Source of the DNA: an uncultured Planctomycetaceae bacterium
GTDB lineage: Bacteria > Planctomycetota > Phycisphaerae > SM23-33
NCBI GenBank assembly: GCA_964427875.1
Contig: CAYRVX010000009.1
Span: 27,600 to 91,599, forward strand
Reading direction: 5' to 3'
Length of the DNA stretch: 64,000 bases
This document shows, piece after piece, positions 6,066 through 63,525 of the stretch. Position 1 is the stretch's first letter; the number at the start of each line of letters is the position of its first letter. The notes under the pieces were generated by a model. It was not told the origin of the DNA, ran no database searches, and worked only from the letters and a program-made list of their open reading frames with translations. The translations under genes were made by a program, and so were the position numbers.

Positions 6066-6262
6066 AGAACGCGGCGAGCAACCTGCCTGCCGGCAGGCAG
6101 GGCTCGCCCGCTAAACGCTCCGCGAGACCGACCTCAGCGGCGCCTGACGACGTCTCCCCCGTTTAGCGGCGGGGCTTGCCCCGCGCGTCTTCGAGTCTTC
6201 GAGTCGCCCCGCGCGCCTTCCTTGTAATCCCCCCGCGGCGCGATTACGATGCCAACGATGAT
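6066..6262. repeat. ~200-bp direct repeat, copy 1, carrying a REP doublet (REPIN) immediately upstream of the RAYT gene
   Basis: About 93% identical to 6887-7100. Contains inverted REP units gcccgctaaacg (about 6105-6117) and cgtttagcggcggg (about 6160-6174). Confidence 0.75.
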
Positions 6263-6845
6263 CCTCGCCTACCATTCCATCTTCAGCGCGTACGGGTTCT
6301 GGCTCCCCAACGACCCCCGCGGATCCTGGTCGGACTTCGTCCGCAGTTGGGAGCTCTTCCGCTTCGGCAAGGCAACGAAGGTTGATCTCAGGCGGTCGGT
6401 GGCACGCGCCGAGCACGACGTCGCCCTCCGTCTCCGCGCGAAGCGGAGCTTGCGCTATCCCCCGGTCGCCTTCACCGGCCCCCAGGCCCGCGCGGTCGGC
6501 CGGGGCTTCGCCGAGGCCGTGGGCGAAGCGAACTACGTCGTCCACGCATGCTCGGTCCTGCCGGAGCACGTGCATCTGGTGATCGCCCGCCACCGGCGCA
6601 GTATTCAGCGGATCGTCGGACACCTCAAGGCGAGGGCGACGCAGCACCTGACGGCCGAGGGCCTGCATCCACTGACGGAGCATGCACGAGGCGACGGCAC
6701 CCTCCCTTCTCCCTGGGCGCGGCGGGGATGGAACGTGTACCTGGACGATCCCAAGCACCTGCGAAACGCCGTGCGGTACGTGGAGGCCAATCCGATCAGG
6801 GAGGGAAACCCGAGGCAGCGCTGGAGCTTTGTTACGCCGCTGTGA
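6249..6845 (+). CDS. REP-associated tyrosine transposase (RAYT; IS200-like Y1 HuH transposase)
   Basis: 198 aa with HuH motif (EHVHLVI) and conserved Tyr region (NAVRYVEANP). N-terminus MPTMILAYHSIFSAYGFW is typical of the Y1_Tnp fold. Flanked by REP doublets. Confidence 0.8.
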   Translation: MPTMILAYHSIFSAYGFWLPNDPRGSWSDFVRSWELFRFGKATKVDLRRSVARAEHDVALRLRAKRSLRYPPVAFTGPQARAVGRGFAEAVGEANYVVHACSVLPEHVHLVIARHRRSIQRIVGHLKARATQHLTAEGLHPLTEHARGDGTLPSPWARRGWNVYLDDPKHLRNAVRYVEANPIREGNPRQRWSFVTPL

Positions 6846-6886
6846 TGGCGTTGGCGGGACGTTGGGGTTCGGGTGCGTCCTCCCGC

Positions 6887-7100
6887 GGGAAGAAACGCGG
6901 CGAGCAACCTGCCTGCCGGCAGGCAGGGCTCGCCCGCTAAACGCTCCGCGAGACCGACCTCAGCGGCGCCTGACGACGTCTCCCCCGTTTAGCGGCGGGG
7001 CTTGCCCCGCGCGCCTTCGCGTCTTCGAGTCTTCGAGTCGCCCCGCGCGCCTTCTTGTAATCCCGTCCCGGCGCCGTTACGATGCGAACCATGATCCTCT
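6887..7100. repeat. ~200-bp direct repeat, copy 2 (REPIN plus duplicated RAYT 5' end)
   Basis: Near-identical to 6066-6262. The repeat runs into a duplicated RAYT start (atgcgaaccatgatcctc versus atgccaacgatgatcctc). Confidence 0.75.
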
Positions 7101-7102
7101 CA

Positions 7103-8500
7103 ATGGAAAGGCAGTGTCTCTCTGTCTTCTGTATCTCGCTCGCATGGGTCTCCACCGCCGCCGCCGCGGCGCCCGAGACCCGACCGGCCCCGCCGCAGTG
7201 GGGCACGAGCAAGGCCGGAGTGCAGATATCCCTGTCCGTGCCGGGGCCGATCCGCACCGGCGGGAAGTTCGAGGCCCACGTGGCCGTGCGGAACGTCGGA
7301 TCGGCCGCGGTGGCCCTGCCGGCCGCCAAGGACGTCTTCGGCTGGCTGCTGCTCCTCTACAGCCGCGACAACGCGTACGTTACCGGGAAGGTCTTTCCCG
7401 CGGCGGAGCTGGCTCCGGGCAAGTGGCCGGGCGAACTGCCCGGCGGCGGGACGATCCGCCTCAAACCGACGGACCTCTCGGCCCTGAACGCATATTCCTA
7501 CGACAAGCGTCGGGCGGTTTACACCGCCTACCTGAAGCCCGAGAGCGGCGCGGCCCTTCCGGCGGCGGACGGCAAGCTCGCCGACAAGCTCTCGCCCGGC
7601 AGCGCCAGGGCGCGGTTCATGCTGTACGTCCCCCGCCCCAACGAAAGCCCCCTGCTGCTCAGCTCCAACGTGATCGAGCTGGAGATCGCCCCGCCGGACT
7701 TCTCCAAACTTTCGCCCGACGCGCAGAGGGAATTCGCCGCCCGCCTCCTCAAGAAGTTCGACAAGGACGCGTGGGCCGCCATGAATGCGCACGGCCAGGC
7801 CGTGGGGATAGGAGCGCCGATCGTGCCCTACCTGATCGAGGGCGTTCGGCAGCGCAGGCGGCCGGGCTACTCCCGGCTTTGGCTGGCAACGGCCCTGGCC
7901 GACATCCGCTGCGAGGCCTCGGCCGCCGAGCTGATCCGCCTGCTCGACGATCCGTCCGGCGGCGTGCGAAGCGTGGTGGGCTACCACGGGCCGAAGCAGC
8001 ACAGCGCCAAGCTCGACGCGGCCATCATCGACAAGATCTCCAGGGAGAAGAGCACCTCCACCGTCTCCTACACGCTGCTGGGCTTCATGGTATTTCGGAA
8101 GCGCGTCCCGGAGGAGCTGCTGGCCGTCAGCTTCGAGAGCGCCGACCCCCGCGCCCGCGCGACCTTCGCCGCGGCCCTCAAAGGCCGGGCGAGCGACTTC
8201 AACGTCTCGCGCCTGACCGCGCTGCTGGCCGACGAGAACGAGCGGGTGCGATCCGCCGCCGCCAAGGCCTTGGGCGCGATGAACCGGCCGAGCGCGCCGC
8301 TCATCGCCGCCCTCGTCCGCTCGCTCCAGGCGCCGGGCGAGCACGCCCGCAAGAGCATCGCCGACGCGCTCGGCCAACTCACCGACCGGAAGGCCCCCTA
8401 CGACCCCAAGGCCGACGAGGAAACCAGGCGGAAGGTCATCCAGGGCTGGAAGGACTGGTGGGCCGAGAAGGTCACCAAGGCAGCCAACGAGCGAAACTGA
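7103..8500 (+). CDS. secreted HEAT/PBS-lyase-like repeat protein
   Basis: Signal peptide (MERQCLSVFCISLAWVSTAAAAA). C-terminal HEAT-like repeats (DPSGGVRS..., ENERVRSAAAKALGAM...). The alternative in-frame start at 7082 (MRTMIL) comes from the duplicated RAYT start. Confidence 0.6.
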   Translation: MERQCLSVFCISLAWVSTAAAAAPETRPAPPQWGTSKAGVQISLSVPGPIRTGGKFEAHVAVRNVGSAAVALPAAKDVFGWLLLLYSRDNAYVTGKVFPAAELAPGKWPGELPGGGTIRLKPTDLSALNAYSYDKRRAVYTAYLKPESGAALPAADGKLADKLSPGSARARFMLYVPRPNESPLLLSSNVIELEIAPPDFSKLSPDAQREFAARLLKKFDKDAWAAMNAHGQAVGIGAPIVPYLIEGVRQRRRPGYSRLWLATALADIRCEASAAELIRLLDDPSGGVRSVVGYHGPKQHSAKLDAAIIDKISREKSTSTVSYTLLGFMVFRKRVPEELLAVSFESADPRARATFAAALKGRASDFNVSRLTALLADENERVRSAAAKALGAMNRPSAPLIAALVRSLQAPGEHARKSIADALGQLTDRKAPYDPKADEETRRKVIQGWKDWWAEKVTKAANERN

Positions 8501-8543
8501 CCGCCGGGGAGCTCACCGCATACCAGGAGAGGCACGCAAGATC

Positions 8544-10154: not shown

Positions 10155-10180
10155 GATCGCACGGCGACGTGAGGAAGGCC

Positions 10181-10738: not shown

Positions 10739-10772
10739 TACGCTGCGCGCGGTGCCAAGGAGCCCCGTCGCC

Positions 10773-31369: not shown

Positions 31370-32290
31370 TCACGGATTCCTCTGATCGGCGACCGTCAGC
31401 GTCGCCCTGCGGACGGAGAAGCAGTCGTTGCCGGAGAAGACCAGGTGGACGGTCCGGCCGTCGCTGCTCATCCACTTCGTGGGGAAGCTGGCCGACTCGC
31501 CGGGGCCGACGTCCCACTTCTCGGTGAGGTAGACTCTCGTCCACGGCCCCCAGGGCTCGGGGGCGTCGTAGACGCCCAGGCCGCCCTTGAATCGCGTGTC
31601 CCGCCCGCCGCCGACCTGGACCCAGAGGTAGCGTTTCAGGGGCGCGTTGTAGCTGACGCCGGAGCGGTAGCACTGGCCGGCGTGCTCGAACACCGCCCCG
31701 CGCCGGCGGATGTCCCTGCTCCATGTGGGGCGGCCTTCCGCGGTGAGCTTCACGAAGAACTCGTACGCCTGCCGGTCGGTGATGCGGCCCTTCGGCGCGC
31801 GGGCGAGGACCATGCGGTCGGAGGGCCTGTAGGCGCTGGCGGCGTCGAACGAATAGACGTATACGTATTCGTCCCGCGCGCCGGCGTAGTCGCGCCCGAA
31901 GTTCAGGAACGTCGGGCAGCCGAAGCCCTCGCGGAACCGCCAGCCGGCCCAGGTCCACGTCCTGCCGCGGTCCTTCGACCAGGCCAGTTGCGAGAGCCTC
32001 GCGTTGCGGACGAGCATGTAGAGCGCCCCGTCGATGCAGAGCATGCCGCTGGCCTTCCTGCCCGACGCGCCGTCGCCGGTCTGCTCGCCGGTGGGCGAGC
32101 GGATGTTGACGCCGCGAAAAGCGTCGGGCGGGCCCTCCACGCGGGCAAGGCCCAGGCTCAGCTTGCCCTTGACCTTCGGCTCGAAGCCCCAGCCGTCCCC
32201 GTAGGCCGTGTACAGGTGGCCGTCGTCGCCCCACGTGACCGGCCAGTTGTCGCTCCCGGAAGCCTTGCGGATGATCGTTTCCCTCGGCGC
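31370..32290 (-). CDS. BNR/Asp-box repeat (sialidase-like) protein; 5' boundary uncertain
   Basis: Asp-box SKDRGRTW plus WPVTWGDDGHLYTAYGDGWGF. Forms the C-terminal third of the 1095-aa read-through ORF. No canonical in-frame start was found just downstream of the AT-rich repeat, so coordinates are approximate. Confidence 0.4.
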   Translation of the reverse strand, partial: APRETIIRKASGSDNWPVTWGDDGHLYTAYGDGWGFEPKVKGKLSLGLARVEGPPDAFRGVNIRSPTGEQTGDGASGRKASGMLCIDGALYMLVRNARLSQLAWSKDRGRTWTWAGWRFREGFGCPTFLNFGRDYAGARDEYVYVYSFDAASAYRPSDRMVLARAPKGRITDRQAYEFFVKLTAEGRPTWSRDIRRRGAVFEHAGQCYRSGVSYNAPLKRYLWVQVGGGRDTRFKGGLGVYDAPEPWGPWTRVYLTEKWDVGPGESASFPTKWMSSDGRTVHLVFSGNDCFSVRRATLTVADQRNP

Positions 32291-32302
32291 CCACCTCAGC
32301 GT

Positions 32303-32470
32303 CAGAAAAGGGGACAGGCTGCTTTTTTCGTCCCCTCGCCGCCCTCGATCCCCGCCGGGACCGCGGCCACCGGACAGGCGGCGGCCTGGGGCCCCCGAGC
32401 GAGAAAAGTAGCCTGTCCCCTTTTTTTTCTCTGGCTCCCCCGAGCGAGAAAAGTAGCCTGTCCCCTTTTT
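32303..32470. repeat. AT-rich element: two tandem copies of a ~38-bp unit plus an upstream inverted partial copy
   Basis: cccccgagcgagaaaagtagcctgtcccctttttttt (32393-32430) repeated at 32440-32470. Inverted copy aaaaggggacaggctgctttttt at 32303-32328. Strongly AT-rich within a ~70% GC context. Confidence 0.8.
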
Positions 32471-32479
32471 CTTCGCGGC

Positions 32480-33413
32480 CGCGACGATGGGGTTGAAGAA
32501 GGGCGCGAGCTTGCCGTAGTGCGATCCCCGGCTGCCCTTGAGGCTCTTGCCGGCCCGGGCGGCAACGATGTCCAGGCTCGGCATGACGACGATCAGGCTG
32601 TCGTAGAGCCCCCACGACCAGTACGTATCGCGCGGCACGTTCTTGAGCGTCCCGTCGGAGTTGTTCCACCACAGCAGGCCGTAATGGCTCGACGCGCCGG
32701 GGTAGTTCTCTGGAAGCACGACGGGCAGGTGCCTGACGGCCTTGGGGGTGGTGCGGCAGGCGGCGACGAACTCCTTCGGGATGATCTGCTTGTCTCCCCA
32801 CCGCCCCTGGTGCAGGTACAGCAGCCCGATGCGGGCCATCGCGGCGACGTTCGCGTGAATGCCGCTGCCGAACTCGCGCCGCGCGACGTTGGCGATCTTC
32901 GCCGGACGGTACGCGTTGCGCCGCCAGGTCAGGTCGTCCGGCTTGATGCCCAGCGGCGTGAAGACTCTGTGGAACATCAGCTCCGTCAGGTCGCGCCGGT
33001 AGATGAGCGTGACGCACTCGGCCAGCCAGTTCGGGCCGCTGTCGCTGTAGGACCACTTCGTGCCCGGCCTGAACAGCAGCTTGCTCGTGCCGCCGGGCTT
33101 GTCGTAGCCCGCCGTCTGCGTCGCGAGGTGGAAGATCGTGATCTCGTCGGCCCAGCCGGCGCCGGCCTTGCCGGGGGGCTTGCCCTCGAGCGATGGGTGG
33201 TGCCTCTTTGCCTTGTCGGTCAGGCGGACCTTGCCGTCGCCGACGGCCAGCCCCAATGCCGTCACGCCGATCGACTTGGTCGTCGACTTCAGGTCGTAGC
33301 GTCGCTTCTGGTCGCCCCAGCGCATGACGAGCCTGCCGCTCCGGACGATGCAGCCCGACCCGCCCCCGGTGAGCGCATAGTCCCTCGCCTTCTTGAGAAC
33401 CGCCTCGTCCATG
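32480..33413 (-). CDS. beta-lactamase-fold serine hydrolase (copy B); boundaries approximate
   Basis: Domain parallel to copy A (GCIVRSGRLVMRWGD ... STTKSIGVTALG ... GLLWWNNSDG). Lies between the REPIN and the AT-rich repeat. Candidate start MDEAVLKK at about 33413. Confidence 0.45.
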
Positions 33414-33473
33414 CCGACGTCCGCGGGCGAGGCGGTCAACCACTTGCCGGACGGTACGGAACGTGCGGGCCGA

Positions 33474-33546
33474 GGCCCGCCGCTAAACGACGCGCCCGAC
33501 GCATTCTTCGCTGCCGCGACGTCGGCAGGCTCGTTTAGCGGGCCAG
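33474..33546. repeat. REP doublet (REPIN): gcccgccgctaaacg ... cgtttagcgggcc
   Basis: Same REP core as the copies flanking the RAYT gene. Translated in-frame inside the 1095-aa ORF as AGPLNEPADVAAAKNASGASFSGG. Confidence 0.75.
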
Positions 33547-33559
33547 CTTGCTGGCCGCG

Positions 33560-34657
33560 TTTCTTCCGCCCATCCCTCACCGCCTTGGCCAGCAGCCTGA
33601 ACGCCTCGTTCTCCTTCTGGCGCCCGCGCGTCCCGCCGTCGTTCCAACTGACGATCAGGTCCAGCGACGGCACGATCGCCATCGCGCGAATGCCCCCGTG
33701 CCCGAACGCGCCGAAGGTGTCCGTCGGCGCATCGGGCCAATGGCGCTTGTTCTCGCGGTCCACGCCGTTGGTCCACCACAGCCAACTGTAGCTGCCCATG
33801 TGGTCGGTCTGGTTGTCGGGGATGTTCCGCGAGCCGATGGACCGCTGATGCGGGATCATGTCGGCCGCCTTGTTGCCGGCGCGCGGGACGGTGTTCGGCA
33901 GCGGCTTGCCGGCCGCCATCTTCGTGAACGTCGCGCCGATCAACTGCCTGCCCTTCCACCTGCCCCCGCGCAGGTACAGCAGGCCGAAGCGGCAGAAGTC
34001 GCGCGGGGAGATCCCCACCCGCCCGGGGCGGTTCTTCACGCCGAACGCCATCATCGTCGGCCGGTCCTCGCAGCCGATCGGGGCCGTCAGCAGCCGGCGA
34101 AAGACCTTCTCGTCCGCCGTCTCGTACGTCACGCCGTACACCTTCAGGAACAGCGCGTCCCAGAGGAGCGCCATCTGCCAGTCGTTGTAGGCGTAGGCGC
34201 TCCCGGGGCGCTCGATGAGCCCGTAGCAGGACGTCTGGTTGGCCAGGTGCCGGAAGGTGATCTCGCGGTCCTTGTGGCCGAGGGCGGCGTTGATCTTCGC
34301 CAGGCGCGGCTCGAACTTCACCGCTTTCTCATCCACGCCCGAGAGCTTTCCGTCCTCGACGGCCTTGAAGAGGAAGTGGCTGTAGAAGACCTTGGCGGCG
34401 GAGGCGACGTCTCGCCGCCGGCCGGCGTCGCCCCAGGTGTGGACCATGCAGCCGCCGCGAACGACGCAGCCGCGCCCGCCGACGAAGTCGCTGAAGGCCT
34501 TCAAGGCCGCCTGATCGAGCCCGGCCTCCTGCGGCGAGCGCCTCTGCCAGGTCCTGCCCGGGCACACCTCTTCGCCGAGCAGCGGAAATGGGCTCACGAG
34601 GACCACCCAGGCCGCGCCGAGCCGCCGCAGCCGACGAGAAAACGCTGGTCCGAACAT
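33560..34657 (-). CDS. secreted beta-lactamase-fold serine hydrolase (copy A)
   Basis: Signal-like N-terminus. S-x-x-K motif context (ASAAKVFYSHF), YAYNDW, GHGGIRAMAIVPSLDLIV. The 3' end is set at the REPIN; no stop codon occurs in frame until 31370. Confidence 0.5.
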
Positions 34658-36893: not shown

Positions 36894-39503
36894 ATGCCCT
36901 ATTGCGGATTGCGGATTGCGGATTGCGGATTCTCTGCGCTCGCGGTGACCGCGGCGATCCTGACGTGCTCGTGCCTCGCCGCCGGCGAAGACACCGAATC
37001 GCTCGGCCGGTGCGTGATCTCCGTCGGCTCCAAGGCGATCGACCCGAAGACACACGCCATCGTCACGCCGGAGAAGCCGACGGAGCAGGAGAGCTTCGCC
37101 GCCGAGGACCTCCGGGCGCAGCTCGAGAAGCTGACCGGCAAGGCGCCTTCAGTGGTGAGAGAGGGCGAGCTGGGCGGCAAGACGCCGATCGTCGTGGGCA
37201 AGTGCACGGCCCTGCTGAAGAAGCTCGGGGTGAAGATCGGCTTCGAGGCCCTCGGCGACGAGGGCATCGTCGTCAGGACCAGGGGCGACGCTCTTGTCCT
37301 CGCCGGCAACCGGCGCGGCGTGCTCTACGCCACGTACACGTTCCTGGAGGACTACTGCGGCTGCAAGTGGCTCACGCCCGACTGCACCGTGCTGCCGAAG
37401 AGCGGCCAGTTCCGGATCGCCGACCTCAACGTCCGCTACATCCCCCCGCTGGAGTACCGCTCGACCGACTACCCATGCTCGCGGCCGGCCGAGTGGGCCG
37501 TGCGAAACAAGATCAACGGCACGCAGACGCGGCTCGCCGAGAAGCACGGCGGGAAGATCGCCTACTCGCACTTCGTCCACACGTTCAACAGCATCCTGAA
37601 CCCGGCCGAGCACTTCGCCGAGCACCCGGAATACTTCTCCATGATCGACGGCAAGCGCGTCGGCAAGAGGACGCAACTGTGCCTTACCGACCCGAACGTG
37701 CTGGCCATCGCCAAGCAGACCGTGCGCCGGTGGATCGAGGCCGCCCCCGACGCCACGATCTTCAGCGTCTCCCAGAACGACTGGCACAACTACTGCCGCT
37801 GCCCGAGGTGCGAGGCGCTGGCCAGGAAGGAAGACTCACAGGCCGGGCCCCTGCTGCACTTCGTCAACGCCATCGCCGACGACATCGCCAAGGACTACCC
37901 CGACAAGCTCATCAGCACGCTGGCGTACCAGTACACGCGAAAGCCGCCGAGGCACGTCAGGCCCCGGCCGAACGTCTGCGTCCGCCTGTGCAGCATCGAG
38001 TGCTGCTTCGCGCACCCGCTGGACGTCTGCCCCACCAACCGCACCTTCGTGGACGACATCCGCAACTGGAACAGGATCTGCAACCGGCTGTACATCTGGG
38101 ACTACGTCATCAATTACGCCCACAGCGTTCAGCCGTTCCCCAACCTCCACGTGCTGGCGCCGAACATCCGCTTCTTCATCGCCCGCGGCGTGAAGGGCAT
38201 CTACGAGGAGGCGTGCTACTTCACGCCCGGCTCGGAGCTGGCCGAGCTGCGCACGTGGATCATGGCCAAGACGCTCTGGGACCCGGACTACGACACCGAC
38301 AAGGCGATCGACGAGTTCCTCGCCGGCTACTACGGCCCCGCGGCCGGGCCGCTGCGCAAGTACATCAACCTCATCCACAAGCAGGTCGCCGACCACGCCG
38401 ACTGGCACGCGAACATCTGGTCGCCCCCGACGGCGGCGTACCTCTCGAAGCGAGTCATCACGCGGTCGGCGAAGTACCTCGATGAGGCCGAGGCGGCCGT
38501 GAGGCACGACCCCGTCCTGCTGCGCCGCGTGCGGATCGCCCGCATGCCGGTCCAGTACGTGCAGATCATGACGGCCTCGCGGGGCTACCGCGCCGAGGGC
38601 GACGCGCTCGTCGCCGCCGAAGACGAGAAGGTCTCCGCCAGGATCGACCGCTTCGAGGCCACCGCGCGCAAGGCGGGGCTGAGGCTCGTCCGCGAACACC
38701 ACCAGCACGGCAACCTCGAGGCGTGGCTGAAGAAGGTCCGGCAGGCCCCGAAGGTCCCGATCGTCCGGCTGGAGAACGCCGGGCTGCGGCTCGCCGTCCT
38801 GCCGGGGATCGGCGGGCGCATCTGGCGGATGACCTACAGGCCCACCGGCCGGGACATCCTCAAGCGATATAAGGCCAGCGACGGCGGGGAGGTCCCCGAC
38901 GCCGGCGGCTACGAGGAGTATTCCCAGGGCGAGTACCGCTCGCCCGGCTGGCGGGAGAAGTTCCGCGTCGTGAAGAAGGATAAGGGGTCGGTCGCGCTGG
39001 AGGGGCGGCTGACGAACGGCCTGCGTCTGCGGCGGACGATCCGCCTGCCGGACGACGACGCGGTGGTCGAGATCCACTCGACGCTCACGAACGTCAGCAA
39101 GGGGCCGGCCCGAGCGTGCCTGCGGGCGCATCCGTGCTTCGCCGTCAGGGACGTGAGGAAGGCGGCCGTCCTGATCGGGCGGCCCGGCGGCGCGGTCCTC
39201 CGCAAGTCGCTGGACATCCCCGCGGACCGGAAGCAGGAGACCGACGAGCTCCTCAGCGGGAAGGACATGCCCGCCGGGCAGTGGACGCTTCTCGAACCGG
39301 CCGGGGCGTTGGAGATCACCTCGCGATTCGAGGCCGGGCAGGTCGCCCAGTGCCTGCTGAACCGCAGCATCCCCGACGGCCGCGTCAACCTGGAGCTTTA
39401 CACGAAAGGCGTCGTCCTGAAGCCCGGCGAGTCGATCGAGCTCAAGCACAGCATCGCCGTCCGGAGGGCGCAGAGAGACACGGCGGCCAAGGCCGCCCGC
39501 TGA
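36894..39503 (+). CDS. secreted DUF4838-like glycoside-hydrolase-associated protein
   Basis: RBS ggagg 8 nt upstream of the atg. Signal peptide. Conserved Cys-rich and aromatic blocks (NDWHNYCRCPRCEA..., IWDYVINY...) typical of DUF4838 proteins in CAZyme loci. The track ORF begins at 35844, but that portion overlaps the Gfo gene in another frame. Confidence 0.55.
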   Translation: MPYCGLRIADCGFSALAVTAAILTCSCLAAGEDTESLGRCVISVGSKAIDPKTHAIVTPEKPTEQESFAAEDLRAQLEKLTGKAPSVVREGELGGKTPIVVGKCTALLKKLGVKIGFEALGDEGIVVRTRGDALVLAGNRRGVLYATYTFLEDYCGCKWLTPDCTVLPKSGQFRIADLNVRYIPPLEYRSTDYPCSRPAEWAVRNKINGTQTRLAEKHGGKIAYSHFVHTFNSILNPAEHFAEHPEYFSMIDGKRVGKRTQLCLTDPNVLAIAKQTVRRWIEAAPDATIFSVSQNDWHNYCRCPRCEALARKEDSQAGPLLHFVNAIADDIAKDYPDKLISTLAYQYTRKPPRHVRPRPNVCVRLCSIECCFAHPLDVCPTNRTFVDDIRNWNRICNRLYIWDYVINYAHSVQPFPNLHVLAPNIRFFIARGVKGIYEEACYFTPGSELAELRTWIMAKTLWDPDYDTDKAIDEFLAGYYGPAAGPLRKYINLIHKQVADHADWHANIWSPPTAAYLSKRVITRSAKYLDEAEAAVRHDPVLLRRVRIARMPVQYVQIMTASRGYRAEGDALVAAEDEKVSARIDRFEATARKAGLRLVREHHQHGNLEAWLKKVRQAPKVPIVRLENAGLRLAVLPGIGGRIWRMTYRPTGRDILKRYKASDGGEVPDAGGYEEYSQGEYRSPGWREKFRVVKKDKGSVALEGRLTNGLRLRRTIRLPDDDAVVEIHSTLTNVSKGPARACLRAHPCFAVRDVRKAAVLIGRPGGAVLRKSLDIPADRKQETDELLSGKDMPAGQWTLLEPAGALEITSRFEAGQVAQCLLNRSIPDGRVNLELYTKGVVLKPGESIELKHSIAVRRAQRDTAAKAAR
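36901..36931. repeat. heptanucleotide tandem repeat (ATTGCGG)x4.4 inside the first 13 codons of the downstream gene
   Basis: attgcgg attgcgg attgcgg attgcgg att. Unit length is not a multiple of 3. Confidence 0.9.
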
Positions 39504-39866
39504 ACGGGCGTGGCCGCCGTTGGTCGGCGTGGAAACAAAATTATTCAAAAAATGTCAAAATAGTTGAAAACCAAGCGGCGTTTCGTGTGTATAATAAGGG
39601 TCGGAGGCACGGTTGTGGGGTGGCTTGATCGGACGAGCCCAAAGCCCAGTGGAAGACGCCATAAGTCTTTTTACGAAACAAAGCCATTTTTCGCCGGATC
39701 GCCTGTAAGACCCTATTTGACAAGCACTTGCAGCGGACCGCCCGGGATTTTGCCTTTGGCGGGATCTGCTCGCCGGAATCCGGCCTGGCGGCGGAGCGGC
39801 CGGCCCAGCCGCGGGGACTTGCGTCTATAAGAGATTCACCTATATCGGCTTAAGCGCCAGAGTCGT

Positions 39867-44768: not shown

Positions 44769-47087
44769 CTACCGCTCGGAGACGTCCTCGAAGGCGGACT
44801 CGGGGTCGGCGCACATCCGCGGGCGGGCGGCGAAGACGTCCGGGCCGATGGCCTTGCCGGTGTCTTCCGTGACGAACAGCTTCACGACGGCGCAGTTCCT
44901 GTACCCGTCCATCGCCACGGCGAGGAACGTGCCGTCGAACTTGAAGGGCACGTCGCGCATCTCGCCGTCGCCCGGGAGCATCACGCCCACGCGGGTCACG
45001 TCGCAGCCGCGCTTCACGCGGAACAGGGCGTAGGGGGTCCGGCCGTACGTGATCTCGTCCTCGTCGGAGACGTGGTCGTTGATGATCCCCGCCACGTAGC
45101 CGCCGGGGGCGGTGTAGAGCTTCCCGCGGGAGCTCGCGGGCACTCGCATCGGGTCCGGCTCGAAGCAGAGCACCCGCCGGCGGAACTGCTCGTACAGGGG
45201 CAGGTATCGCCGGTAGAGGGCGATGTTCCCGTCGGTCCGCTCGACGAGCGTCGGCCAGGCGCCGTGCAGCACGCTGCGGCGGAGGTAGAAGTCCACCGGC
45301 TCCTCCGGCCGCGTGAACAGGAAGAACAGCGGGCACGCGATGGAGGCCCAGAAGAACTTCTCCTCATAGACGTCCCCGCAGCCCTCCAGGAGCTGGCCGT
45401 CCACGTACCGCATCGAGCGGATGCTCATCGGCTTGTTGGCGAAGCACGTCAGGTCCCGGGGGGCGAGGACGTCCTCGGCGATCATCCGCTGGATCCGATC
45501 GTAGCTGCGGTTCATGCTGTAGCAGGGCTTGCCGTTGACCACCGTGACGCCGTCGTCGTGGGCGAAGTCGATCTCGTAGTGGCGGAAGCAGTCCAGGAAG
45601 AAGCCGCTGAGCATCGGGTAGTCGTCGAAGATCTTCCCCGCCGATTCGCGGCAGAACTTCCCGAAGCTCCATCTCGGGTCGGCGTTCATGTTGTGGCACA
45701 TGTACCAGCCGCTGGGGATGGGCTCGCCGTCCTCGTCGCGGCTGATCGAGTCCGGCCAGTCCTTCTCGACCCGCGGCCGGTAGCCGTCGGTGTAGTTGAA
45801 GTACCAGTGGCACGCGATGCCGGCGTCGGCGAGCACCTGGAGGCGGCGCCTGACGTCGGCGCGCGTGTGATACAGCCGCGCCGGGTGCTCCTCGGAGACG
45901 TACTCGGCGATCTCCTCATCGCTGTGGTCGGCGAGGAACTGCTCGACGTCGGCGGCGCTGACGGGCGAGGGCGCCTGCCACGCCTTCGGCGAGTCCTTGC
46001 CCGTGCGCTCGCGGACCATCCTGTGGTAGACGCGCTCCCTGGTCCTGTTGCGCAGCCACCTGTCCTTCCCATCGTTGAAGTAGTCGCAGTACTGCGAGAA
46101 GTGGCCGTGCACCTCGAGCGTCTTGAGCCCCATGGCGAGCAGCTTGTCCACCTCGTCGGAGTCGTCCACGCCGCCGCAGAGGAAGCCGCCTTCCCGCTCG
46201 TGGATGGCCGGGTTGTGCGGATCGAAGTACTCCCGCCAGCGGCGGTAGACCATTCCCAACCCGCACCGCCAGTCGCCCTCGTGGAACAGCAGCATCACCT
46301 TCGTCCGCATGGGGCGCTCGCCCACCAGGCCGACGTAGTAGTTCACCGCCTCCAGCACGGGGATCGTCCTGAGGTCCTTGTGCATGGAGCCCCAGTTGAA
46401 GCACTTCTCGCCGTTGTTGAAGATGAACTTGGCGGCCGGGACGTTCGCGTCGATCGGCTCGACCATCGAGTAGCCGACGTTCAGCTCGCGATGGTAGTGG
46501 CTGACCATCGGCAGGATGATCTCCTGGCGGCTGACGTAGGGGACCTGGACGTACATGAGCTCGAACGGCGTCATGCCGTCGAAGGTGATCTCCCCGTGCG
46601 CGCACGGCGCCCACACGTCCCACCCGGCGATCAGCGGGAAGCGGAAGTACACGCGCAGCGACCGGTCGGCCACGTCCGGCGAGGCCTTCTCGGCCGTGAC
46701 CTCCCAGTGGAGGGCGTCATCTTCGAGCCGCAGCTCCATCCCGACGGTGAACGGCGCATCGGCGTAGCGGCGCGTCAGGTGGATGCTGTTGCCGTCGTGG
46801 CGAGCGTCGTGGATCGTAAACGGCGTCCGCAGGTCGTCGTACCAGCGGTCGTCGGCCTCGTCGTAGACGCGCACGGCCCCCACGTAGCCGGGGATCCCGC
46901 CGCGGAGCTGCCGGAAGAGGTCCAGGCCGGCACGCTTGAACAGCAGCGAGCGGATCAGGCCGGTCCGGCTTTCCACGTCCATCGCCACGCCGGCGTTTTC
47001 CAGCCGCCACGTGTCCGTCGAGCCGAGGTCGGCTAACCGATCTCCAGGTAGTTCTCCGCCTGGGTCTCCGGAATCTGGGGACGCCAT
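44769..47087 (-). CDS. large hypothetical protein (possible glycoside-hydrolase-like)
   Basis: 772-aa ORF with non-repetitive, balanced composition and Trp/Tyr-rich blocks. No family recognised from memory. Confidence 0.45.
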   Translation of the reverse strand: MASPDSGDPGGELPGDRLADLGSTDTWRLENAGVAMDVESRTGLIRSLLFKRAGLDLFRQLRGGIPGYVGAVRVYDEADDRWYDDLRTPFTIHDARHDGNSIHLTRRYADAPFTVGMELRLEDDALHWEVTAEKASPDVADRSLRVYFRFPLIAGWDVWAPCAHGEITFDGMTPFELMYVQVPYVSRQEIILPMVSHYHRELNVGYSMVEPIDANVPAAKFIFNNGEKCFNWGSMHKDLRTIPVLEAVNYYVGLVGERPMRTKVMLLFHEGDWRCGLGMVYRRWREYFDPHNPAIHEREGGFLCGGVDDSDEVDKLLAMGLKTLEVHGHFSQYCDYFNDGKDRWLRNRTRERVYHRMVRERTGKDSPKAWQAPSPVSAADVEQFLADHSDEEIAEYVSEEHPARLYHTRADVRRRLQVLADAGIACHWYFNYTDGYRPRVEKDWPDSISRDEDGEPIPSGWYMCHNMNADPRWSFGKFCRESAGKIFDDYPMLSGFFLDCFRHYEIDFAHDDGVTVVNGKPCYSMNRSYDRIQRMIAEDVLAPRDLTCFANKPMSIRSMRYVDGQLLEGCGDVYEEKFFWASIACPLFFLFTRPEEPVDFYLRRSVLHGAWPTLVERTDGNIALYRRYLPLYEQFRRRVLCFEPDPMRVPASSRGKLYTAPGGYVAGIINDHVSDEDEITYGRTPYALFRVKRGCDVTRVGVMLPGDGEMRDVPFKFDGTFLAVAMDGYRNCAVVKLFVTEDTGKAIGPDVFAARPRMCADPESAFEDVSER

Positions 47088-47118
47088 TGGGACTCCTGCT
47101 CCCTGGGATGCTCGCGGG

Positions 47119-48435
47119 TCACACCGTCTCGGGCAGCTCGTAGCCCTTTCGCCTCGGGCGGTCGAGGTGGGTGTTGGCCTCGTCGTCTCCGATGAACTTC
47201 TCGGCCTTGGGGTCCCAGCGGAGCCTGCGGCCGAGCCAGCGGGCGATGTTGCCCAGGTGACAGACGGTCGTGGAGCGGTGGCCGATCTCCACGTCGGCCA
47301 CGCAGCGCTTGCGCGACTTGATGCAGTCGATCCAGTTCTGCATGTGGTTGTCGCTGACGTAGAGGCGGACCTTCGGGTCGGTCAGCGGGTCCTTGACCAG
47401 CTCGGGCGGGGTGCCCTTGGCGCTGCCGCGGTTGATGACGATGCGGCCGTTTTCGCCCTCGAAGATCGCCCCGCCGCCCGGGCCGTTCTCGAGCTTCAGG
47501 ACCACGCCGTCGGCGTAGCGGAAGAAGACCCTCGGCTGGCCGCACATCTTGTTGCCGCGGCTGCGGCTCTCGGGCTTCGTGTACGTCGGCGGGTCGAACT
47601 TCGGGCCCTCGGTCCAGATCTCCACGGGGCCGGACTCGTCCATCCCCAGCGCCCACTGCACCTGGTCCAGCCCGTGGGCGCCCCAGCCGGTCATCTCCCC
47701 GCCGGAATACTCGCGGAAGGAGATCCATCCCGGCTTGGCGCGGGCGATGAAGATGTCGCGATGGTACGGGCGCAGCTTGGTCGGGCCGCACCACAAGTCC
47801 CAGTCCAGGCCGTCGGGCACGTCCTCGCCGCCCAGGCCGCAGTTCCACGGGCTGGGGTAGTTCGACCCGATCACCAGCTTCAGCTTGCCCAGGCGGCCGT
47901 TGCGGATCAGCTCGCAGCCGAGGCGGTTGGCCTTCATCGACCGCTGCTGGCTGCCGGTCTGGAAGACGCGTTTGTACTTTCGCACGGCCCGGGCCATGAG
48001 CCGGCCCTCGCGGATGGTGAGGGTCATGGGCTTCTCGCAGTAGACGTCCTTTTCGGCCTGGCAGGCGTGGATGCAGGGCAGGGCGTGCCAGTGGTCTGGC
48101 GTGGAGACGACCACGGCGTCGACGTCCTTCTGCTCGAGCATCTTGCGGTAGTCCTGGTAGGCCTTGGCCTTTCTGCGGTCGGCGGCGCGTTTGGCGCGGT
48201 TGATGTCCACGTCGACGGCGGCGACCATCTGGACGTCTTTGGGCACGCCGTACAGCCCGCCGGCGCGTCGTCCGGCCCCGACGTACCCCACGCCGATGCG
48301 GTCGTTGGCGCCGGGACGGCCCGGGGCGGCCAGCACGCCCGAGGGGATGAGGTACGGCACGGCGAGGCCCGCAGAGGCAGCCGCGGCGGTGTTGCCCAGG
48401 AAGCGTCTTCGGGAGAGTCTCTTCTGTCCGGCCAT
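47119..48435 (-). CDS. Gfo/Idh/MocA-family oxidoreductase with twin-arginine signal
   Basis: MAGQKRLSRRRFLGNTAAAASAGLAVP (Tat), GVGYVGAG, CEKPMT. Confidence 0.85.
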   Translation of the reverse strand: MAGQKRLSRRRFLGNTAAAASAGLAVPYLIPSGVLAAPGRPGANDRIGVGYVGAGRRAGGLYGVPKDVQMVAAVDVDINRAKRAADRRKAKAYQDYRKMLEQKDVDAVVVSTPDHWHALPCIHACQAEKDVYCEKPMTLTIREGRLMARAVRKYKRVFQTGSQQRSMKANRLGCELIRNGRLGKLKLVIGSNYPSPWNCGLGGEDVPDGLDWDLWCGPTKLRPYHRDIFIARAKPGWISFREYSGGEMTGWGAHGLDQVQWALGMDESGPVEIWTEGPKFDPPTYTKPESRSRGNKMCGQPRVFFRYADGVVLKLENGPGGGAIFEGENGRIVINRGSAKGTPPELVKDPLTDPKVRLYVSDNHMQNWIDCIKSRKRCVADVEIGHRSTTVCHLGNIARWLGRRLRWDPKAEKFIGDDEANTHLDRPRRKGYELPETV

Positions 48436-48555
48436 GCTTCGGCCTCCTTCGTTGACGGCCAGGTGCGAGTGTCCGGTCGCGGTCATTGGCGTTGATTGAG
48501 ATTCTAACCGGAAACCGGCGGCGAGTCGATGGCGGTCTGGACGGGCAGAAGACGC

Positions 48556-48660
48556 GGCCGGCAAGCCGGCCCGCTAAACGCCCAACCGTGCGGAACACAT
48601 TTGGCGTCGGCTCCGCGAAGCGTTTAGCGGCGGGCCTTGGCCCGCGCGCTCGTCGAAGTT
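48556..48660. repeat. REP doublet (REPIN) in a divergent intergenic region
   Basis: cggccggcaagccggcccgctaaacgcc ... cgtttagcggcgggccttggcccgcgcgctcgtcgaag. The 28-nt left arm is identical to 63498-63525. Confidence 0.75.
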
Positions 48661-48688
48661 AGAATCTGTCGCAACGAAGGGAGCCGCC

Positions 48689-49873
48689 ATGAAGAGTAGC
48701 GATGAACTGCGAATCGGCGTGATCGGTGCCGGTGGGCGAGGCGGGCTGGCCTCGCTGGCGCACAAGCCGGACGACGGCGTTCGCGTGGCTGCGGGCGTGG
48801 ACACCCGGCCGGAGGCGCTGGAGGCGTTCCGGGCAAAGTACGGGGCGGATGTCTTCGCCTCCGACGACTACCGCGATCTGCTGAAGCGCGACGACGTGGA
48901 CGCCGTCTTCGTGACCAGCCCCGACTATTGCCACGAAGAGCACGCCGTCGCAGCCGCCGAGGCGGGCAAGCACATCTACCTCGAGAAGCCGATGGCCATC
49001 ACCATCGCCGGCTGCGACCGGATTCTCGAGGCCGCCCGCGCGGCCGGCGTGAGGCTCTACCTCGGCCACAACATGAGGCACTTCCCGGTCATCCGGAAGA
49101 TGAAGGAGTTGATCGACACCGGCGCGATCGGCGAGCCGAAGGTCGGCTGGTGCCGCCACTTCGTCTGCTACGGGTGCGACGCGTACTTCAAGGACTGGCA
49201 CGCCGAGCGGAGCAAGTCCACCGGCCTGCTGCTCCAGAAGGGCGCCCACGACATCGACGTGCTGCACTGGCTGTGCGGCGGGTATTCGCGGCGGGTGACG
49301 GCGATGGGCGGGCTGACGCTGTACGACCGGATCACCGACCGCCGCAGGCCCGAGGAGCCGCCGGACACGTCCTGGCACGTCGAGCACTGGCCGCCGCTCT
49401 CGCAGAAAGGCCTCAACCCCGTCATCGACGTCGAGGACGTCTCCATGATGCTGATGGAGCTGGACAACGGCGTGTTCTGCTCCTACCAGCAGTGCCACTA
49501 CGCCCCGGACGGCTGGCGGAACTACACGGTCATCGGCACGGAGGGGCGCGTGGAGAACTTCGGCACCGTGCCCGGCGAGAAGACGTGCGTGCGGCTGTGG
49601 AACCGGCGGACGCACTACGAGCCCGACGGTGACGAGGTGTTCCACTTCCCGCCGCTTGCCGGCAGCCACGGCGGCGCGGACCCGCGAATCGTCGCCGAGT
49701 TCGTCCGCTACGTCCGAGAGGGCGGCAAGGTGGCCACGTCGCCGGTGGCCGCGCGGTTCAGCGTCGCCGCCGGCTGCCAGGCAACGGTGAGCCTCCGCGG
49801 TGGCAGCCGGCCCGCGGACGTGCCGCCGCTGGACGCCGCCCTCCGCCGGCACTTCGAGGCGGACGAGGCCTAG
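48689..49873 (+). CDS. Gfo/Idh/MocA-family oxidoreductase
   Basis: RIGVIGAGGRG, EKPMAIT, C-terminal alpha/beta domain. Confidence 0.85.
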   Translation: MKSSDELRIGVIGAGGRGGLASLAHKPDDGVRVAAGVDTRPEALEAFRAKYGADVFASDDYRDLLKRDDVDAVFVTSPDYCHEEHAVAAAEAGKHIYLEKPMAITIAGCDRILEAARAAGVRLYLGHNMRHFPVIRKMKELIDTGAIGEPKVGWCRHFVCYGCDAYFKDWHAERSKSTGLLLQKGAHDIDVLHWLCGGYSRRVTAMGGLTLYDRITDRRRPEEPPDTSWHVEHWPPLSQKGLNPVIDVEDVSMMLMELDNGVFCSYQQCHYAPDGWRNYTVIGTEGRVENFGTVPGEKTCVRLWNRRTHYEPDGDEVFHFPPLAGSHGGADPRIVAEFVRYVREGGKVATSPVAARFSVAAGCQATVSLRGGSRPADVPPLDAALRRHFEADEA

Positions 49874-58530: not shown

Positions 58531-58571
58531 GGTGGAGGAGGCCCGCCATGGAGACTCGGCGCGGCCAGGAG

Positions 58572-59257: not shown

Positions 59258-59289
59258 GGGCAGGTCCGCGCCGCGTCGGAGACGAGGCC

Positions 59290-60534: not shown

Positions 60535-60623
60535 GCCCGGCCTGCCCTTCATTGCCTCAATCATGACAAACCCGCCTCCGCCCTGCTATCATGGTGGCCC
60601 CCAGGCAGGCCAGGAAGTCAACC

Positions 60624-62624
60624 ATGAGCAGACGGCGGATTGCAGACCGGTGGTTCGGGCGTGTCCCGTCATTCGCCCTGGCGATCGCGTGGGGCGTTGC
60701 GGCCGCAGGCGCGGGTGGGGGCGATAAGGCCGAGAACGACAAGCAGGCCGGACTCCGCGCCCAACTGAAGAAGCTCCCTTACAGGATCGTCTACGAGAGC
60801 CATCGGGGCGGCGACTGGGACCTGCTGCTGATGAACGCCGACGGCTCGGGATGCGTCAACCTCACGAAGGCGCCAAGCGCCGACGACCTCTACCCCCACG
60901 CCTCGCCCGACGGCGGCACGATCTGCTTTCTCGTGGACGAGGGCAGGGCCGAGGCGAAGTCCCGAAACCTCTACACCATGGGCGTGGACGGCCTCGGCAG
61001 GAAGCTGATCGCCAGGAACGCCCGCCAGCCCTGCTGGGGTCCCGGCGGGCGGCGGCTCGCATACCTCCCCGGCGAGTTCGACCGCTTCACCTACAGGGAT
61101 TACGCCACGAAGGGGCTGGTCGTATATGACGTGAAGACCGGCCGCGGACGCCCGCACCCGAACGGCGACATCCATCACCTCTACAACCTGTGCTGGTCGC
61201 CGGACGGCAAGTGGTTCACGGCGACCGTGCACGGCGGGATGGGCCACAAGCACGCCAACCTGGCCTTCCCCGCCGGCGGGAGGGAGGTCTTCAAGCTGCC
61301 CGGCGTGGGGGGCTGCCGGCCCGACATCAGCCCCGACGGCAAGAGGATCTCCTGGAACGCCACCGACCACCTCATCGCCGTCGCCGACCTCCGGCTCGGC
61401 GCCTCCGGGCCCAGGGTCGCCAACATCCGAAAGGCCGTCACGTGCGACAAGCAGCACGAGGTGTATCACGCGGACTGGTCCCCGGACGGCAAGTACATCG
61501 TCTTCTCCTACGGCCCCAAGGGGGGCGAGCAGGTGGGCACGATGGCGAAGGGCTGGCACATCTGCGTCGCCGACGCGGCGCAGAGGGACCTGTGGGTCGT
61601 CCTGACGACCGGCGGGTTGAGCAACAAGGAGCCGGACTGGGTCCCTGCCGGCCCGCCCGCCCCGGCCGCGGACGGCGAGGCCCTCTCCGAGAAGCAGCTC
61701 AGGCTCGCAGCCGGGCTGAAGAAGCTCCCCTACAGGATCGTCTACGAGACGTATCGCAAGGACAACTGGGAGCTCTTCCTGATGAGCGCCGACGGGTCGG
61801 GCGCGGTCAACCTCACGAACACGCCGGACGTGCACGAGCTCAACCCCCACGCCTCGCCCGACGGGGCGAAGGTCTGCTTCGTCGCCGATGAGGGCCGGGG
61901 GAAAGGCAAGACCCGAAACGTGTACGTCATGAACGCCGACGGCACCGGCCGAACGCTCGTCGCCGCCAACGCCCGGCAGCCCTGCTGGGGGCCCGGCGGA
62001 CGCCGCCTGCTCTACGCAAAGGGCGAGTACGATCGGTTCACGTACAGCAGCTACGGCACGAAGGGGCTGTTCTTCTACGATACGGCCAGCCGCCGGCACG
62101 CGCCGCATCCCAACGAATCGCTGCTGCACGTGACGTACCTCTGCTGGTCACCGGCCGGCGGGTGGGTCCTCGGCACCGTGCACGGGGGCATGGGCTACAA
62201 CCACGCCAACCTGGCCGTCGAGGCGGACGGCACCGGCGTGTTCGCACTGAAACGCGCGGGGGGCTGCCGAATGGACGTCAGCGCCGACGGCGGGAAGATC
62301 CTCTGGAACGCCTCCGACCGGGCGATCGTCGTGGCCGACCTGGACCTGCGGGCCCGCCCGCCGGGGATCGCGAACACCCGGACCGCCATCAGTTGCGGCA
62401 AGGAGCACATGGTCTACCACGGCGACTTCTCGCCCGACGGGAAGTATATCCTCTTTGCCCACGGTCCCAACGGCCCGCAGCACGTGGGCCTCAAGGCGCC
62501 CGGCTGGCGCATCTGCGTCGCCGACGCCGCGGAGACCAACGTCTGGGTCGCCCTCACCACCGGCGGCGAGAGCAACAAGGAGCCGGACTGGCTCCCCGCC
62601 GCAAGCAGGGCCTCGGGACGATGA
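60624..62624 (+). CDS. TolB-like / PD40 beta-propeller protein with an internal tandem duplication
   Basis: Signal/anchor. Two ~300-aa copies, each with PD40-like blades (DGSG..NLT...P.ASPDG, WSPDGK). Copies ~65-70% identical. RBS aggaag upstream. Confidence 0.7.
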   Translation: MSRRRIADRWFGRVPSFALAIAWGVAAAGAGGGDKAENDKQAGLRAQLKKLPYRIVYESHRGGDWDLLLMNADGSGCVNLTKAPSADDLYPHASPDGGTICFLVDEGRAEAKSRNLYTMGVDGLGRKLIARNARQPCWGPGGRRLAYLPGEFDRFTYRDYATKGLVVYDVKTGRGRPHPNGDIHHLYNLCWSPDGKWFTATVHGGMGHKHANLAFPAGGREVFKLPGVGGCRPDISPDGKRISWNATDHLIAVADLRLGASGPRVANIRKAVTCDKQHEVYHADWSPDGKYIVFSYGPKGGEQVGTMAKGWHICVADAAQRDLWVVLTTGGLSNKEPDWVPAGPPAPAADGEALSEKQLRLAAGLKKLPYRIVYETYRKDNWELFLMSADGSGAVNLTNTPDVHELNPHASPDGAKVCFVADEGRGKGKTRNVYVMNADGTGRTLVAANARQPCWGPGGRRLLYAKGEYDRFTYSSYGTKGLFFYDTASRRHAPHPNESLLHVTYLCWSPAGGWVLGTVHGGMGYNHANLAVEADGTGVFALKRAGGCRMDVSADGGKILWNASDRAIVVADLDLRARPPGIANTRTAISCGKEHMVYHGDFSPDGKYILFAHGPNGPQHVGLKAPGWRICVADAAETNVWVALTTGGESNKEPDWLPAASRASGR

Positions 62625-63520
62625 GGCCGGACGCCCGAATGAAAGCAGCGGTCCTTCTCAGCCTGCTCGTATGGACGGTCCCGCTCTCCCTGAGCTGCCG
62701 GAACGGCGGCGGGCGGACCGCGCCGCCGCCGGTATTCATCACGAAGACCGGCGTCGAGATGGTTTGCGTCCCGGGCGGGTGGTTCCAGATGGGCTCGGCC
62801 AGCGCCGGCGGCGACGAAGCCCCCGCCCACAGGGTCCGGGTGGATGCGTTCCTGATGGACAGGTATGAGGTCACGCAGGACCAGTTCCGCCGGCTCGAGA
62901 TGCCCGACCCGTCCCACTTCAAGGGCGCCCGCCGGCCCGTCGAGCACGCCACGTTCGCCGAGGTGGTCGAGTTCTGCAACGAGCGATCCGCGGCCGATGG
63001 GCTCCGGCCGTGCTACCGGCTCGACCCCGAAGGCGGCACGTGGACGTGCGACTTCGACGCGAGCGGCTACCGCCTGCCCACCGAGGCCGAGTGGGAGTAC
63101 GCCTGCCGGGCCGGAACCACGACGGACCGCTTCTTCGCCGCCGCCGGCGAGACCGCGCTGAAGCGATACGCCTGGTACGCAGCCAACTCCTCGAAGACGA
63201 CGCACCCCGTCGGCGGCAAGCAGCCCAACGCCTGGGGCCTGTATGACATGTACGGCAACGTGGCCGAGTGGTGCAACGACTGGTACGACCCGAACTACTA
63301 CAGGACCAGCCCCGCGAGGAACCCTCGCGGCCCGGCAAGGGCCATGCTCGTCGTCCTGCGCGGAGGCTCGTGGAGCTCCAGGCCGCATCGATGCCGTTCC
63401 GGCGCGCGGGCGGGCGAAGACCCCCGCTTCCACGACGCGTGCTTTCCGAAGGACACGACCGGCTTCCGCTGCGTCCGCAGGCCGCCGCGGGCGGACGCGG
63501 CCGGCAAGCCGGCCCGCTAA
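62621..63520 (+). CDS. formylglycine-generating-enzyme (FGE/SUMF1) family protein
   Basis: RLPTEAEWEYACRAGTTT ... NAWGLYDMYGNVAEWC ... RGGSW. Signal peptide from the second Met (62639). The last ~10 codons and the stop lie inside a REP unit. Confidence 0.8.
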   Translation: MRPDARMKAAVLLSLLVWTVPLSLSCRNGGGRTAPPPVFITKTGVEMVCVPGGWFQMGSASAGGDEAPAHRVRVDAFLMDRYEVTQDQFRRLEMPDPSHFKGARRPVEHATFAEVVEFCNERSAADGLRPCYRLDPEGGTWTCDFDASGYRLPTEAEWEYACRAGTTTDRFFAAAGETALKRYAWYAANSSKTTHPVGGKQPNAWGLYDMYGNVAEWCNDWYDPNYYRTSPARNPRGPARAMLVVLRGGSWSSRPHRCRSGARAGEDPRFHDACFPKDTTGFRCVRRPPRADAAGKPAR

Positions 63521-63525
63521 ACGCC
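63498..63525. repeat. REP singlet flanked by an 11-bp direct repeat
   Basis: gcggccggcaagccggcccgctaaacgcc. Flanked by gccgccgcggg at 63481-63491 and 63523-63533. Confidence 0.65.

Follow-up and report, generated by a model that had tools for sequence, protein, structure and literature searches.

Short palindromic repeats recur along a 64,000-nt stretch of DNA from an uncultured Planctomycetaceae bacterium (contig CAYRVX010000009.1, positions 27,600 to 91,599; the whole stretch is called the window here, and positions count from its first letter). The same stretch carries one gene, at 6249-6845 on the + strand, for a protein resembling the tyrosine transposases associated with repetitive extragenic palindromic (REP) sequences, known as RAYT or TnpAREP. 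The question raised by this locus is whether the repeats and the gene belong to one system and, if so, how the repeats were spread. We consider it very probable that they do belong together, i.e., that a REP family and a single RAYT/TnpAREP-like Y1 HUH gene make up a REPtron. Loci fetched from other genomes are cited below by their L numbers.

Repeat units and doublets

The 9-nt core of the repeat, CGCTAAACG, was found nine times in the window, counting both strands, whereas 0.25 copies are expected, and none of 100 dinucleotide-preserving shuffles reached nine; the repeat family noticed in the original prediction is real. A 12-nt version of the core occurs in five exact copies plus one with a single mismatch, against 0.39 expected. 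Ten REP units occupy six separate sites over 57 kb as four head-to-head doublets and two singlets, where the heading of the original prediction gave three doublets and one singlet at five sites; the site overlooked then is a singlet at 39482-39506 with the core variant CGCTGAACG, which has one substitution. The doublet positions given earlier were right to within ~10 nt, the second doublet starting ~10 nt before the position assigned to it. Eight of the nine exact cores pair convergently, with start-to-start distances of 51, 51, 51 and 49 nt, and the ninth stands alone at 63515.

Each unit consists, in this order, of a weakly conserved RACGC, a hairpin whose G+C stem is 6 bp long and whose loop is CAAG, and the invariant tag CGCTAAACG. 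The hairpin takes up the 16 nt immediately 5' of the core, and its loop reads CGAG in one copy. Because sequence 3' of the core shows no conservation among the units, the unit is ~32-34 nt long. Read on the complementary strand, CGTTTAGCG precedes the hairpin, the foot being TTAG. The stems in the window (GGCGAG, GCGGGG, GCGGGC, GGCCAG, GGCCGG and GGCGGC) are each perfectly complementary, and further stems were seen in relatives (GCAGGG, GCGGGA, GGCCCG, GGCGGG and GCCCCG): among 29 distinct units there are 11 distinct perfectly complementary stems, with five of the six base pairs varying on both sides. In the window and close relatives, the hairpin accompanies all exact cores, except for one single-mismatch copy and two copies with a nested palindrome. 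When all fetched loci are taken together, a perfect stem of 5 bp or more that ends at position -1 accompanies 53 of the 223 core sites, compared with 1.3% of random positions, and the core sites lacking a hairpin come from unrelated phyla.

In the doublets, the two tags face each other across spacers of 40-42 nt in the window and 23-44 nt in relatives. As single-stranded DNA (ssDNA), a doublet is predicted to fold into a three-way junction (z = -3.0, -4.3 and -2.0) in which ACGCG/CGCGT forms the outer stem, the paired cores form a central one and the two hairpins complete the structure. All four doublets therefore have the inverted-pair arrangement of a REPIN, in which a short spacer separates two REPs of opposite orientation (Bertels and Rainey 2011, PMC3116915). 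The idea that the spacers are host DNA and that doublets arose from two insertions at a fixed distance is weakened, because the spacer lengths in relatives cover so wide a range.

Two cores that pair around a variable centre also recall the attC sites of integrons, with CGCTAAAC as R'', GTTTAGCG as R' and the RAYT gene as the cassette. GCTAAAC and GTTTAGC are each one mismatch away from RYYYAAC and GTTRRRY, and the order doublet-gene-doublet is cassette-like. However, neither core matches the consensus, the spacers form no L''/L' stem, and the conserved outer hairpins, the singlets, the head-to-tail tandems and the tandem doublet arrays are all foreign to attC. In addition, the window encodes no integrase, and the gene in relatives has a doublet on one side only. 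We give this explanation hardly any credence, and it was rejected along with the transposon-derived and terminator readings taken up below, since each fails defining features in membership tests and a T-run search.

In L066 (6671-6740), two units with different stems lie head-to-tail in direct orientation, 36 nt apart, so that a single unit can be a building block alone. The same 9-mer is also part of a different dispersed element in Amycolatopsis and other Actinomycetota, where the palindrome GCGTTTAGC-C-GCTAAACGC is made by the core itself; its copies are paired at distances of 45-74 nt, with several in 8 kb (L009, L010, L014, L017, L026, L027, L032, L044, L054, L065, L068, L070 and L072).

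The RAYT-like gene and its flanking repeats

The gene at 6249-6845 encodes 198 aa with the motifs EHVH (H107, H109), W156..W161 and Y177-V-E-A-N-P. The protein matched NCBIfam REP_Tyr_transpos (E = 3.9e-13), and 4837 homologues were found at E < 1e-5, many of which carry the JGI name RayT. When the PDB was searched with a profile of 32 homologues, E. coli TnpAREP (4er8) ranked first, VLPEHVHLV aligning with VLPEHMHCI at the HUH motif and YVEANP with YIYINP at the tyrosine motif; H107-V-H109 and Y177-V-E-A-N181-P182 are invariant across the 32 homologues. The AlphaFold model (pLDDT 82, pTM 0.80) has the Y1 HUH fold: Foldseek placed ISDra2 TnpA (2xma) and 4er8 on top (E = 1e-5), and the TM-score normalised to target length was 0.56-0.69 across the best ten matches, with 0.56 for 4er8. 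HUH, the catalytic Tyr and Y---NP are all present, the last being the signature of class 2 TnpAREP-like proteins (Quentin et al. 2018, PMC6006769). The motifs EHVH, WA and YVEANP fit no subclass consensus in Table 1 of that paper, and the protein has an N-terminal extension of ~75 aa that is partly disordered.

Only one copy of the gene was found in the window, whose proteins include no second transposase and no integrase, and contig counts in the homologue cluster are mostly 1-3. The gene order PPDK-PQQ/LamG-RAYT-HEAT is common to relatives at the 80% level, and its upstream part was found also in a relative at 88%. Single copy and shared gene order argue for a vertically inherited, domesticated gene and not for an insertion sequence.

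On either side of the gene lies a copy of a ~200-bp direct repeat (6068-6266 and 6894-7099), which contains a doublet, the 5' untranslated region and the first six codons. The upstream doublet (6065-6192) has its cores at 6109-6117 (+) and 6160-6168 (-). In its + unit, the stem arms GGCGAG (6073-6078) and CTCGCC (6103-6108) enclose a CAA...G loop with a nested palindrome, and in its - unit the hairpin GCGGGGCTTGCCCCGC (6169-6184) adjoins the core. The downstream doublet (6891-7018; cores 6935-6943 (+) and 6986-6994 (-)) is the upstream one copied at +826, 138 nt being 99% identical. We attribute the two doublets to the structure of the REPtron or to gene conversion and not to separate transposition events. 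Among orthologous loci, L073 has a doublet upstream of the gene, L077 has one downstream and L074-76 have one on each side, with degenerate cores; flanking doublets are more alike within a lineage than to their orthologues, which suggests local homogenisation.

The same arrangement recurred well beyond the close relatives. A scan for the doublet pattern with one genome per species found the architecture in numerous Planctomycetota, i.e., Planctomycetaceae, Phycisphaerae, Tepidisphaeraceae and a group of related metagenome-assembled genomes (29-nt spacers), and in one Pyrinomonadaceae genome. At L047, L020, L002, L038 and L041, which had been chosen by the repeat alone, doublets flank RAYT homologues that are 55-60% identical. 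Conversely, the blind-picked homologues at L162, L163 and L164 (61-63% identity) were all flanked by hairpin-plus-tag units, the tag being CGCTAAATG in L162 and L164 and GTAGCGG in L163, whose units read GGGTAGCGG followed by the hairpin; tag variants flanking the homologues include TTTAGCG, ATTTAGCG and GTAGCGG. In the window as well as at all eight homologous loci examined, distant Planctomycetota lineages included, the Y1 transposase gene is flanked by its own kind of unit, and the earlier claim of one REP family tied to the resident RAYT holds. Essentially no units were present in the negative control, which comprised 381 kb of sequence from 80 other relatives among the Planctomycetota, so the hairpin-tag motif is not a general property of such DNA.

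How the protein may act on the units can be proposed by analogy with E. coli TnpAREP and the TnpA of IS200/IS605. It would bind the folded hairpin on ssDNA, recognising the stem by its shape and the tag by its sequence. Its catalytic tyrosine would then cut and rejoin DNA, and by this reaction units could be copied, moved, tandemly amplified or homogenised. From these better-known enzymes we infer mobilisation of the units by the RAYT-like protein, as well as the strand used. The tag is constant across Planctomycetota lineages whose RAYT proteins are ~55-63% identical, with the stems free to vary, and this makes the family a test case for how such an enzyme would read its site. IS200/IS605 elements share with the window the Y1 HUH fold and the recognition of a subterminal hairpin on ssDNA. 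They differ in that the window gene is single-copy and syntenic and the hairpins alone are dispersed, and in that IS200/IS605 make no target duplication.

Systems of REPs and a RAYT are of a known kind, well described in Proteobacteria, and the one in the window is an ordinary REPtron apart from its TTAG tag, its divergent protein, its heterogeneous doublets and one insertion with a duplication. Like the REPtrons of E. coli (PDB 4er8) and Pseudomonas, it has a short G+C hairpin with an unpaired foot, mostly arranged in head-to-head doublets; a single-copy syntenic Y1 HUH gene amid its own repeats, whose product has HUH, Tyr and Y---NP; and tandem clusters that vary in copy number among relatives. 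It differs from them in the foot, which is TTAG within the 9-nt invariant CGTTTAGCG instead of GT[AG]G, in the divergence and the N-terminal extension of the protein, and in the overlap of half of the sites with coding sequence. REPs of GTAG families with tyrosine transposase genes have been reported in Planctomycetes, in Rhodopirellula baltica (Di Nocera et al. 2013, PMC3733652). Compared by published description, those families share with ours the phylum and the tyrosine transposase genes with flanking palindromic repeats.

Several observations weigh against assigning the repeats and the gene to a REPtron or a REPIN population. The unpaired GT[AG]G foot of the GTAG REP superfamily is absent; TTAG is a close variant, and the GTAGCGG units of the 61% identical homologue in L163 link the TTAG tag to the classical GTAG foot, so that the two tags are related. 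The protein reached 49.5 bits with the NF047646 equivalog, for which the cut-off is 80, and 20.2 with Pfam Y1_Tnp PF01797, for which it is 23; it is a divergent relative and not an equivalog. The stem covariation score, 0.82 for the 29 aligned distinct units compared with 0.18 after shuffling and at most 0.21 with the partner column slid, was obtained on a set pre-selected for perfect stems. REPtrons typically have >100 repeats per genome, and the density in the clade, ~15 units in 128 kb, would correspond by extrapolation to hundreds of units in each genome, from loci that are biased because they were partly picked for RAYT. With coding sequence overlapped at three of the six sites, the elements cannot be called strictly extragenic. 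Lastly, in REPINs the doublet is the replicated unit and spacers are shared. By inspection, no relationship is seen among the spacers of the window's three independent doublets, with shared spacers in the B2T1B10 lineage, which makes a recently amplified REPIN master copy a poor fit. The window doublets are otherwise REPIN-like in their predicted folding into a long hairpin or clover, in the presence of one RAYT gene and in their seemingly vertical inheritance in the closest relatives; besides the spacers, the difference is one singlet that entered de novo as a single unit, described below.

Minor features were also seen around the gene. The downstream copy of the direct repeat extends to 7099 and takes in the start of the HEAT-repeat gene. 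The RAYT gene begins with MPTMIL (6249-6266) and the HEAT-repeat gene with MRTMIL (7082-7099), both within the direct repeat, so that the start region is common to the two genes. The palindrome nested in the CAAG loop, CCTGCCTGCCGGCAGGCAGG, is perfect over 20 nt (6082-6101 and 6908-6927); since the orthologous unit in L073 has a plain CAAG loop, it is a later insertion. In the interval from the doublet to the start codon of the RAYT gene, the octamer GAGTCTTC, the REP unit's outer flank, is repeated in tandem, with two copies in the window (6185-6210; 7018-7045) and three in L073 (~6045-6070).

Turnover and a single-unit insertion

Units were gained and lost between genomes that are ~90% identical. 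At the RAYT locus, such genomes differ by the extra flanking copy and the nested palindrome; at 33.4 kb, a doublet corresponds to a remnant; at 39.5 kb, a singlet corresponds to a doublet; and at 48.5 kb and 63.5 kb, the unit is present in one genome and absent from the other. In another lineage, doublets form tandem arrays with a period of ~115 nt (L020 831-995; L038 7132-7295 and ~7360; L047 7133-7181), which have 1, 2 or 3 copies, the number varying between ~94% identical genomes. These arrays resemble clusters of bacterial interspersed mosaic elements or REPINs. We read the gains and losses, as they appear from alignments, as turnover on an evolutionary time scale. An active or recently active REPIN population had been proposed from the window, and the differences between ~90% relatives weakly suggest an active REP population; however, the insertion described next is old, and the unrelated spacers together with the varied stems argue against a recent burst.

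A clean insertion was found at the end of the FGE-sulfatase gene, which is truly ~300 codons long. The singlet there (63492-63525, +) is 34 nt, made up of cggacgc, GGCCGGcaagCCGGCC, CGCTAAACG and cc, with the core at 63515. It is flanked by the perfect 11-bp repeat gccgccgcggg (63481-63491 and 63526-63536) that had been noticed earlier, and after the right copy comes the ancestral stop, as aa-TAG. As also recognised before, the core provides the stop of the gene (TAA, 63518-63520), and the singlet contributes the last 11 sense codons (PR + ADAAGKPAR). The L079 orthologue (86% protein identity) has the identical 34-nt insert and the 11-bp repeat, and the orthologues L078 (84%) and L080 (80%) are without the insert, a single diverged target copy (AAGGCGCCGCCACTGGAGTAG) followed by the ancestral TAG stop being present in L080. 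With 45 nt taken out, the window sequence again reads ...RPPRE-TAG. Because the orthologues are empty and the 45-nt removal restores the ancestral end, the singlet is a genuine insertion, of one unit exactly, with duplication of ~11 bp (at least 9) of the target. It arose as a singlet and not by decay of a doublet. Since the insert is common to the window and L079, the insertion predates their split (~88% DNA identity) and is old, not recent. The locus offers a clean pair of filled and empty sites, with exactly one unit in and the target duplicated.

At the insertion spot (~1120-1150 in L078), the L078 orthologue has lost 10 nt between CCGC repeats, and the frameshift leads to the C-terminus GNSPTRAGHFSGR.

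Such a duplication could mean that the repeats are MITEs (miniature transposable elements with inverted repeats) moved by a DDE transposase encoded elsewhere, whose staggered cuts leave 11 bp duplicated, and the doublets do have inverted ends ~34 nt long. Yet among ~27 elements tested, a flanking repeat of at least 9 nt was present at the FGE singlet and its orthologue alone and at none of 11 doublets. The FGE singlet has no terminal inverted repeats, the window encodes no other transposase or integrase, and in every lineage the repeat accompanies a Y1 gene, not a DDE gene. We therefore regard MITE-type movement as very improbable. The target duplication suspected in the original prediction is confirmed by the empty orthologous sites, but it is not a property of the family; a repeat found at one site of ~27 is no family signature and tells little about how the units usually move.

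A flanking repeat this long within 26-nt flanks was found at 1 of 3000 random window positions, and the target is a (GCC)n-like tract with the palindrome CCGCGG. The duplication is most likely due to a one-off template switch or microhomology-mediated repair in this tract. It is rather unlikely, in our estimate, that this REP family has a second insertion pathway, by which a single 34-nt unit, not a doublet, enters de novo with an ~11-bp target duplication. If this were true, RAYT-associated repeats would have an insertion route other than single-strand integration of the IS200/IS605 type, for which capture at a staggered break and a templated switch at a replication fork are candidates, and singlets would not always be decayed REPINs. 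The mechanism of REP dissemination has been called poorly understood (PMC8266576).

The FGE singlet shares sequence with the doublet at 48548-48654, which has hairpins at 48556-48571 and 48630-48645 and cores at 48572-48580 (+) and 48621-48629 (-) and lies between divergent GFO/IDH/MocA genes. An identical 28-nt arm had been reported for the two sites; the identity is real, but the arm starts at 48555 instead of 48556 and the match runs over 32 nt (48551-48582 = 63494-63525). In the closest relative at this locus, L082, the whole neighbouring gene is missing and the intergenic DNA does not align.

The GFO/IDH/MocA gene absent from the L082 locus is the one at 47119-48564 (window 47031-48698 compared with L082 2162-2394), and the promoter-like region of L082 is directly 5' of the orthologue of the next gene. 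In the window, divergent promoter-like sites with TAGAAT -10 boxes, at 48501-48529 (-) and 48637-48665 (+), bracket the doublet, and the -35-like TTGGCC of the right site sits in the loop region of a REP hairpin.

Units within genes and possible host roles

Of the three units or doublets that overlap coding sequence, two provide stop codons and the third forms an in-frame part of a protein linker. This third one is the doublet at 33457-33567 (hairpins 33465-33480 and 33541-33556; cores 33481-33489 (+) and 33532-33540 (-)), within a 1095-aa open reading frame (31370-34657, -). This frame is a genuine three-domain serine hydrolase, with homologues of 1014-1095 aa down to 58% identity, and the doublet adds ~33 residues to its first interdomain linker. 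In L081, a ~90% relative, this site is not cleanly empty but contains what is left of a decayed copy, CGCGAAACG, 51 nt shorter. Besides the FGE singlet, the second stop is supplied by the singlet with the variant core (39473-39506, +), GGCGGC-caag-GCCGCC-CGCTGAACG with its core at 39498, which encodes the ...DTAAKAAR tail and the TGA stop (39501-39503) of a gene ending at 39503. The corresponding unit in L081 has TAA in place of TGA, plus a partner unit 24 nt off. "Extragenic" elements can thus become C-terminal tails, stop codons or in-frame linkers, which is relevant to the annotation of high-G+C Planctomycetota.

Rickettsia palindromic elements (RPEs), which are 100-150 bp long, are likewise inserted in frame in genes. 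The window repeats resemble them in being palindromic sequences tolerated within open reading frames as extra peptide segments and differ in that RPEs are longer. RPEs are not known to have an adjacent dedicated RAYT.

Overlap with two stop codons, with the TAA-to-TGA change at 39501 keeping a stop, could indicate that the repeats are host regulatory or structural sites under selection and that the RAYT gene is an incidental neighbour. They might stabilise mRNA 3' ends, modulate translation or termination near stops, or bind nucleoid proteins, and E. coli REPs do have host roles of this kind. Selection would also be in line with the 34-nt singlet, which is 100% identical between the window and L079 in surroundings of ~88%, and with the stems, whose complementarity is kept while their sequence varies among copies. 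The repeats nevertheless follow no single positional logic, being situated between divergent genes, in a linker and at 3' ends. A search of the 2-kb region around the 48.5-kb doublet found no T-run terminators, the units are without trailing T-runs, and an Rfam search of the window matched no family. The adjacency of gene and repeats in every lineage sampled is unexplained by a pure host function, and units are gained and lost between close relatives. We thus consider host sites with an incidental RAYT neighbour an improbable explanation and prefer the REPtron, although the two views are not mutually exclusive.

A second, unrelated palindromic repeat, GGGGACAGGCTACTTTT, was observed at 32310-32465, as a tandem pair and one inverted copy (0.06 matches expected). 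It is in frame in the second linker of the serine hydrolase, where it encodes KKKGTGYFSRSG twice and then EKSSLSPF. This repeat has GTAG on the complementary strand, and the relative P0242 has one copy fewer.

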